Shown: positions 30,656 through 31,073 of the stretch, in pieces
Layout of the letters: each line of letters opens with the position of its first letter
Position numbering within the stretch: the stretch's first letter is position 1
Source: an uncultured Gemmatimonadales bacterium
Lineage (GTDB): Bacteria > Gemmatimonadota > Gemmatimonadetes > Gemmatimonadales > GWC2-71-9
Reading direction: 5' to 3'
DNA: 64,000 nucleotides
NCBI GenBank assembly: GCA_963844035.1
Contig: CAWJMT010000037.1
Span: forward strand, 192,001 to 256,000
Position numbers and translations under genes: made by a program
Notes under the pieces: model-generated
Told to the model about the DNA's origin: nothing
The model's database searches: none
The model's input: the letters and a program-made list of their open reading frames with translations, nothing else

Positions 30656-30684
30656 GTCACTCCTCGACTTGGACAGGCTCAACT

Positions 30685-30702
30685 TCGTGAAATAATTCAC
30701 AA
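30685..30702. promoter_or_regulatory. Palindromic operator, Rex-type (also fits the CRP core), upstream of prk-tal
   Basis: TCGTGAA-ATAA-TTCACAA; one mismatch to TTGTGAA-N4-TTCACAA; about 30 bp upstream of the prk ATG. Confidence 0.75.
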
Positions 30703-30998
30703 ACGGCAAGTGATGATCGCCTGGAGTCGGCGCGTCCGCTACCGACGTTCGGGCGAGCCAGGTCTCGCCCCATTGGGTAGGGGGGCGCAAACGGCGCCGC
30801 AGAGCAGGGATCATCGCAGCGAAAGTTCGCGTCGCGAGCGGTCCGGAGCGGCTCGAACGGGTGTTGGCGTTTATCCGGAAAGCGGGCTACTCTTACGGCT
30901 TCCGCAACACGCCGCGCGGTAGTTCCGCGCCGGCGGGATGTCGTGTCGCCACCCCTTTGAGTGGGGCGGCGCTTCGGATGGGCACACCCAAGTGCCCG

Positions 30999-31028
30999 TT
31001 GCGCGGATCGCTGGGCCTCAATTATGCT
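30999..31028 (+). promoter_or_regulatory. Putative sigma70 promoter of cbbL
   Basis: TTGCGC-18 bp-TATGCT immediately before the operator. Confidence 0.4.
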
Positions 31029-31037
31029 TTGTGAGGC

Positions 31038-31055
31038 TTGTGAAAGAATTCACAT
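31038..31055. promoter_or_regulatory. Palindromic operator, Rex-type (also fits the CRP core), upstream of cbbL
   Basis: TTGTGAA-AGAA-TTCACAT; one mismatch; extra TTGTGA half-site at 31029-31034; just before RBS GGAGG. Confidence 0.78.
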
Positions 31056-31073
31056 ACTCGGAGGGTGGCTTCC

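Follow-up and report, generated by a model that had tools for sequence, protein, structure and literature searches.

Two palindromic boxes facing the two arms of a divergent RuBisCO island in an uncultured Gemmatimonadales bacterium are very probably operators of the organism's own Rex, and the island that they would control is free of CbbR. Under the proposed mechanism, Rex would hold the cbbL-cbbS-cbbX-prk and prk-tal arms off as long as NAD+ dominates; a rise in NADH would release Rex, and CO2 fixation would then be gated by surplus reductant and not by CbbR. Release of Rex may also be coupled to the production of more ATP synthase, which would fit an ATP-costly cycle. A fuller form of the model, which we advance only tentatively, is that the RuBisCO island reached a soil lineage of Gemmatimonadales by horizontal transfer and was rewired there as an AND gate that works without CbbR. 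A C1 or substrate signal would arrive through a NarL-type kinase-regulator pair, while Rex would read NADH/NAD+ directly and co-release RuBisCO, PRK, and ATP synthase. Rex, its box, and the cbb genes are known parts; their combination was not found in print, and a second activator is probable.

Layout and gene content of the island

The island lies in the window, as the whole 64-kb stretch of DNA that was analyzed is called here, and belongs to a source genome (G000) of 3.47 Mb with 67% G+C and 84% completeness. Two divergent arms flank a 418-bp spacer (30656–31073), prk-tal running on the minus strand and cbbL-cbbS-cbbX-prk on the plus strand. The minus-strand phosphoribulokinase gene (prk copy 1; 29696–30655) matches NCBIfam PRK07429 with 340 bits against a cut-off of 236 and is followed by the transaldolase gene tal (28527–29664, minus strand). 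The plus strand carries cbbL, encoding a red-type form I RuBisCO large subunit (31074–32532), cbbS for the small subunit (32552–32977), the RuBisCO activase gene cbbX (32974–33900; TIGR02880, 484 bits against a cut-off of 459), and prk copy 2 (33905–34897), which is 75% identical to copy 1. Among named relatives, those closest to the prk protein are titled Gemmatimonadales or Gemmatimonadota. The small subunit was assigned by its position and by 71–78% identity to orthologs, NCBIfam giving only a weak small-subunit-like domain match. Frameshifts occur in the assembly within tal near 29110–29120 and within cbbL near 32122–32135. True decay of these genes was considered but rejected. Breaks affect many other, unrelated genes of the assembly too, and the congeners' copies, including tal, are intact; the frameshifts are therefore read as assembly errors. 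Identity between the G000 cbbL and the intact copies of relatives is 87–93%. The divergent layout with two prk copies, one per arm, is also found in Solirubrobacterales loci (L073, L095, L113, L119, L121, and L129), where a LysR gene lies beyond it. Downstream in the window, two tRNA-Ala(TGC) genes (37741–37813 and 39546–39618) are separated by 1.8 kb, and a similar small gene for a membrane protein or lipoprotein follows each of them, an arrangement that resembles a tandem duplication or an integration scar.

By inference, cbbL may belong to form IE. It is 79–82% identical to cbbL of Actinomycetota; in pairwise comparison, a copy on a Mycobacterium plasmid is 80% identical to it, whereas no proteobacterial copy exceeds 72.6%. 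Form IE has been described in 8 phyla, and Gemmatimonadota is absent from those named in the available part of that report (PMC9561532). Calvin-cycle genes are already known from soda-lake Gemmatimonadota, in a study whose accessible portion does not mention Rex (PMC8779627). The island was probably acquired sideways.

The two boxes and the cbbL promoter

Box 1, a putative Rex-type operator (30685–30702; TCGTGAAATAATTCACAA), is located 30 nt upstream of the prk start codon (ATG at 30655 on the minus strand), and box 2 (31038–31055; TTGTGAAAGAATTCACAT), likewise putative, ends 5 nt before the GGAGG of cbbL (31060–31064; ATG at 31074). The earlier note had placed two 18-bp palindromes at exactly these positions and read them as Rex operators. 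Each departs from TTGTGAA-N4-TTCACAA by one mismatch, with exact spacing; this consensus, its A/T-rich spacer, and the effect of NADH on Rex are covered in PMC2883068, and a generalized Rex consensus stems from Ravcheev et al. 2012 as cited in PMC5317091. Across the 64-kb window, 3 consensus matches with at most 3 mismatches were found against 0.34 expected, and no shuffle out of 100 yielded 3 or more. The spacers of the two boxes are A/T-rich (ATAA and AGAA), with TTAA, ATAT, and ACAA as variants elsewhere, and the variant ends of the cbb boxes (TC at the start, AT at the end) also occur before the rex genes of relatives. A rex gene with a box of its own, conservation among orthologs, the missing CbbR, and the predicted repressor position together support the reading of the boxes as Rex operators.

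The predicted cbbL promoter spans 30999–31028 on the plus strand, with a -35 element TTGCGC (30999–31004), an 18-nt spacer, and a -10 element TATGCT (31023–31028). It was drawn from alignment alone, with a presumed transcription start near 31035. TTGCG and TAT are invariant in all eight aligned loci, so that the putative -10 noted before box 2 is conserved; a sigma-70 consensus scanner did not detect it, returning no promoter between 30600 and 31100. Because the conserved -35 and -10 elements lie just upstream, box 2 is predicted to occupy about +4 to +21 of the cbbL transcript, beside the ribosome-binding site, which is the position of a repressor; Rex bound there would block RNA polymerase. 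For the prk arm, neither consensus scan nor alignment gave a clear -10 or -35. Control by sigma-54 was considered and rejected, the -24/-12 pattern being absent from 7/7 box-bearing loci and present in 2 of 20 sister-clade loci. Public sequencing runs matched at most 22% of the sequence words, and only as contigs, which gave no start site, strand, or expression level. One RNA-library contig extends over the start of prk and over box 1 as far as 30734, although the library may contain DNA. A CTACTCT word at 30887–30895, possibly a second -10, sits mid-spacer in G000, G001, G002, G004, and G661 and before cbbL in G067.

The rex gene and its predicted regulon

The genome search found rex present, intact, and with a box in front. 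G000 has two copies, on near-identical contig pieces; these regions (C12:177–5525 and C23:47999–53303) share 87–97% DNA identity and may reflect strain duplication within the bin or else a genuine duplication. The encoded protein passes several NCBIfam Rex cut-offs and aligns over its full length with solved Rex structures (E 7.5e-50), and both the recognition helix and the glycine-rich NAD loop line up with theirs. Of the 11 sites in G000 within 2 mismatches of the consensus, the only perfect ones are the two located 1 nt before the ATG of each rex copy, and in 5/5 other genomes (G001–G004 and G067) the single perfect box sits at rex. The gene was present in all five relatives tested. A box with at most one mismatch lies within 50 nt in 22/22 rex loci of at least 59% identity and in 1/8 more distant ones, giving 23/30 phylum-wide.

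A matrix trained on 21 rex sites, all from other genomes and scoring 29.9–37.1 in training, gave 36.1 and 35.0 for the two rex sites of G000, 32.6 for box 1, 31.7 for a site flanked by the F0 ATP-synthase operon and moxR, 31.2 for box 2, and 25.1 for a site at atpA. The genome-wide scan thus placed both cbb boxes in the top six beside rex and the ATP-synthase operons. Below these, two matches fall in the AT-rich tail of contig C4, and the best remaining site in host-like DNA scores 16.9. This tail (about 415000–455565) has 25–29% G+C against 67%, carries its own gap and pgk, and looks like foreign DNA joined in. The predicted local Rex regulon is small, comprising rex, the ATP-synthase operons for F0 and F1, and both cbb arms; the ATP-synthase sites recur in relatives, and a cupredoxin or universal-stress gene joins the predicted regulon in some of them. 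No box was found at the hydrogenase, pfk, or fbp genes. An extra Rex box precedes an outer-membrane-like gene in G278 (L144:1501) and G664 (L153:1501), in the latter divergent from a cupredoxin-like gene.

Conservation and distribution of the boxes

Conservation of the boxes at orthologous cbbL/prk loci, a check suggested in the earlier note, was pronounced: cbbL is present in five of the six congeners, and both boxes are letter-identical in all five. In a six-genome alignment, 36/36 box columns are invariant, compared with 51/382 columns in the rest of the spacer; between the boxes, the congeners share 44–58% identity with G000. Both boxes are also present in L060, where cbbL is unassembled, and the arms of box 2 are kept with other spacers in G278, G664, and L159. 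In G278 and G664, cbbL follows a tRNA-Leu gene, with box 2 at the same place; the cbbL operon starts about 100 nt from the tRNA gene (L133:1300–1382 and L065:3481–3566), a likely integration site. Among 80 metagenome loci, a 1-mismatch box was found in 3 and a 3-mismatch site in 2, and reversed-pattern controls gave 0–2 matches per genome.

In a quick cbbL tree of 99 rows (2 rows dropped for coverage; G665, L136, L137, and L140 not included), the box is confined to a single clade (SH-aLRT 98), where 11 of 12 rows carry it, two of these 11 being identical; none of the 87 other rows does. The Rex boxes were probably gained once, in a single cbbL clade. Since the genomes are kin, the conservation counts are not independent; they consequently show selection on the site and not repeated origin. 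G067 falls inside the box-bearing clade and G665 (unpublished) has a 91% identical cbbL, yet both lack the box although rex is present; Rex control is thus dispensable in this cbbL lineage. Outside the box-bearing clade, L187 has a 3-mismatch Rex-like site 116 nt upstream of cbbL, either an independent case or chance.

Absence of CbbR

The window contains no LysR gene, in the divergent position or elsewhere, as had been stated from the sequence. The only two LysR helix-turn-helix matches of G000, a genome that is 84% complete, are on another contig, and the one that was scored reached 62 bits against a CbbR cut-off of 450. The cut-off of the CbbR model, which represents proteobacterial CbbR, was passed in none of the seven genus genomes. 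G003 (100% complete) and G006 (93%) carry both boxes and have no LysR helix-turn-helix match at all; because both are near-complete, CbbR is excluded there. In many actinobacterial relatives, a LysR gene adjoins the cbb genes.

A second motif and a NarL-type kinase-regulator pair

A further motif recurs in the spacers. The SecR operator of Aminobacter consists of CCYACCCG and the inverted repeat CGGGTRGG (PMC13199381). In the window, a CCYACCC half-site at 30775–30781 (minus strand), upstream of operator 1, is a candidate site for a NarL/LuxR-type activator. Such a half-site lies 57–79 nt upstream of box 1 in 8/8 divergent spacers, once with a mismatch, and the density of CCYACCC is 2.8 per kb in Rex-bearing spacers versus 0.30 genome-wide. 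A degenerate SecR-type palindrome with 4 mismatches, weak alone, lies at 30948–30965 (plus strand), 126 nt upstream of cbbL; G002, G003, and G004 have one at -123 to -126 from cbbL with 3–4 mismatches. Sites with 4 mismatches are common genome-wide, and the motif was chosen after the alignments had been seen. Full SecR-type palindromes are degenerate throughout the Rex-bearing genus (3–6 mismatches). In Rex-less relatives, CCYACCCG-NN-CGGGTRGG precedes the RuBisCO genes with 0 mismatches in L193, 1 in G575, 1 in L067, and 2 in G067, and in each of these four a HisKA_3 kinase and NarL/LuxR regulator pair adjoins the cbb genes.

G000 also encodes such a pair (C4:235779–237115), consisting of a short HisKA_3 kinase with no evident sensor domain and a NarL/LuxR regulator (C4:236495). 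The regulator occurs in 6/6 congeners at 87–93% identity and also in G067 and G575; it was not found in G278 or G664, which have no CCYACCC or SecR-type motif either, nor in any of four relatives without cbbL. The second motif fits the SecR consensus, with a perfect or near-perfect match in four relatives, and, as with SecR (PMC13199381), C1 assimilation genes are associated with it. The pair is nevertheless not SecR, because the regulator keeps a full, normal receiver domain and an adjacent HisKA_3/HATPase kinase, whereas SecR has neither a phosphorylation motif nor a cognate kinase; the predicted targets here are cbb genes, in contrast to the serine-cycle genes of SecR (PMC13199381). Given that the second motif and the two-component pair track the island, Rex is probably not its sole regulator. 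From these sequence patterns, we consider it slightly the better supposition that the NarL-type pair would activate the same promoters through CCYACCC sites as a second layer, giving an AND gate.

The L067 cluster (L067:1474–12098) contains fae, an mtd-like gene, the kinase-regulator pair, a SecR-type palindrome, transaldolase, a divergent RuBisCO large subunit that lacks a neighboring small subunit, prk, tkt, and a PQQ dehydrogenase, and is a candidate methylotrophy and Calvin-cycle island. The location of the pair between fae/mtd and the RuBisCO genes, with the PQQ dehydrogenase near, hints at a C1 signal.

Alternative explanations

That the boxes are chance or non-regulatory sequence has a negligible probability, given the shuffles, the reversed-pattern controls, and the invariance of the boxes within diverged spacers; their conservation refutes this reading. 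A protein of the CRP/FNR family is a more serious candidate, either as the real or as an additional binder, in which case the island would answer cAMP or oxygen and not NADH. As the earlier note had cautioned, the boxes hold the CRP core: box 2 matches TGTGA-N6-TCACA exactly and box 1 with one mismatch, and the genome has two CRP-family genes over cut-off, one of them encoding a full CRP-type protein with cNMP and helix-turn-helix domains (C35:194589). However, the Rex-specific A at position 7 and T at position 12 occur, as judged by eye, in only 6 of the 41 sites within one mismatch of the CRP core, and these six are the two rex sites, both cbb boxes, the atp-F0 site, and one in foreign AT-rich DNA. 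The inner A and T are constant in all cbb boxes examined, with the spacer varying, and the crp genes have no box nearby whereas rex has one. Box 2 also lies downstream of the predicted -10 and not upstream of or over the -35, where an activator would be placed. CRP can also repress, and the non-activator position accordingly lowers the CRP alternative without removing it. Overall, we regard control by a CRP-family protein as improbable, with co-binding by CRP conceivable, and retain Rex as the probable binder.

With Rex as the binder, its rank among regulators and the purpose of the cycle can still be read in different ways. The NarL-type pair could be the main switch, with Rex only trimming, so that the island would answer a C1 or other signal first and redox secondarily. 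The pairs and near-perfect palindromes at the cbb genes of Rex-less relatives agree with this, as do the retention of the regulator in 6/6 congeners and its lack in the 4/4 relatives without cbbL, the position of the L067 pair, and an H4MPT-linked formaldehyde oxidation module in G000 (C9:72485–90463; fae, mtd-like gene, fhc subunits, and pterin ligase). We nonetheless judge it unlikely: the Rex-bearing genus combines invariant Rex boxes with degenerate SecR-type palindromes, the Rex box of G278 and G664 is accompanied by neither motif nor regulator, the G000 pair sits on another contig than the cbb island, and the CCYACCC motif was selected post hoc. The cycle might alternatively be a redox valve for low oxygen, disposing of NADH while the cell grows heterotrophically, as in purple non-sulfur bacteria, and not a means of gaining extra biomass from inorganic or C1 electrons; such a role would be compatible with Rex binding. 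Rex regulons in other phyla are induced under oxygen shortage (PMC2883068) and the Calvin cycle can act as a redox-balancing route (PMC3203349); moreover, form I CO dehydrogenase over cut-off and a photosynthetic reaction center were found in 0/7 genus genomes each. Yet a cytochrome b-linked, membrane-type uptake hydrogenase is present in 6/7 genus genomes and heme-copper oxidases in 5/5 genomes tested. The Calvin cycle costs 3 ATP and 2 NAD(P)H per CO2, and in the dark a shortage of oxygen lowers the ATP supply as well. In G000, high-scoring Rex sites precede ATP-synthase genes, and none of the top matches lies before fermentation genes or a bd oxidase. On these sequence grounds, the box at ATP synthase and the ATP cost of the cycle lead us to hold it reasonably likely that fixation is gated by spare electrons in an aerobe, and to favor this over the hypoxic valve, which is possible but rather doubtful.

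Relation to known systems and significance

In acetogens, Rex acts upstream of Wood-Ljungdahl or other CO2-fixing genes, a reductant-consuming carbon-fixation pathway; the pathway considered here is different, and acetogens are anaerobes. The RegA/PrrA control of cbb operons in purple non-sulfur bacteria relies on a membrane kinase and an activator that work with CbbR, in phototrophs. By contrast, the regulator predicted here is a cytoplasmic NADH-binding repressor, in non-phototrophs and with no CbbR. A tie between CO2 fixation genes and the redox state of the cell would be common to both; the Calvin cycle as an electron sink in purple non-sulfur bacteria is described in PMC3203349. The Staphylococcus aureus Rex system resembles the present one in its 18-bp inverted repeat, A/T-rich spacer, protein family, box before rex, and promoter-adjacent sites (PMC2883068). 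Rex targets named in these sources include fermentation, nitrate respiration, and hydrogenase genes; the predicted targets here are RuBisCO, activase, phosphoribulokinase, transaldolase, and ATP synthase, in the phylum Gemmatimonadota. CbbR is described as the activator of cbb operons in the introduction of PMC13199381, citing Dangel and Tabita 2015, and those operons, as outlined there, have the same structural genes; the difference lies in the lack of an adjacent LysR gene here, with none over the CbbR cut-off in the genus, and in control that looks like repression by a dinucleotide sensor.

No link between Rex and cbb genes was found in literature titles and abstracts, although Ravcheev et al. 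2012, supplements, or RegPrecise could hold a predicted one, and the accessible part of 10.64898/2026.05.21.726994 does not mention such a link. If true, this would be the first Calvin cycle directly controlled by a pyridine-nucleotide sensor, and dark CO2 fixation in these aerobes would be a function of spare electrons. CbbR is the standard switch in the usual view; a lineage using Rex would show fixation wired straight to the NADH/NAD+ ratio. The model yields a testable rule, that a surplus of electrons sets when abundant uncultured RuBisCO-bearing soil bacteria fix carbon. Such a rule matters for how RuBisCO gene counts in soils are interpreted. The system would also illustrate clearly how a global regulator of the host can take over a metabolic island of foreign origin, the wiring being different in sister lineages. 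The parts involved (Rex, an 18-bp box, and a short promoter) are small, and the logic might be reused for coupling engineered CO2 fixation to redox state.

Completeness of the cycle

G000 has tkt, rpe, gap, pgk, tpi, tal, and a class I FBPase; rpi was not found by a crude motif. XoxF was likewise not found in this 84% complete genome, by motif or by tblastn with the L067 protein. Class I FBPase was detected in 2/5 genomes tested, GlpX in 0/5, and class V FBPase in 0/7, with a pyrophosphate-type phosphofructokinase in 7/7. Three cbb-bearing congeners that are 95–100% complete (G002, G003, and G004) had no detectable class I, II, or V FBPase and do have the pyrophosphate-type phosphofructokinase. 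This enzyme, together with transaldolase, could close the cycle in the FBPase-less congeners, as the same combination does in other autotrophs.
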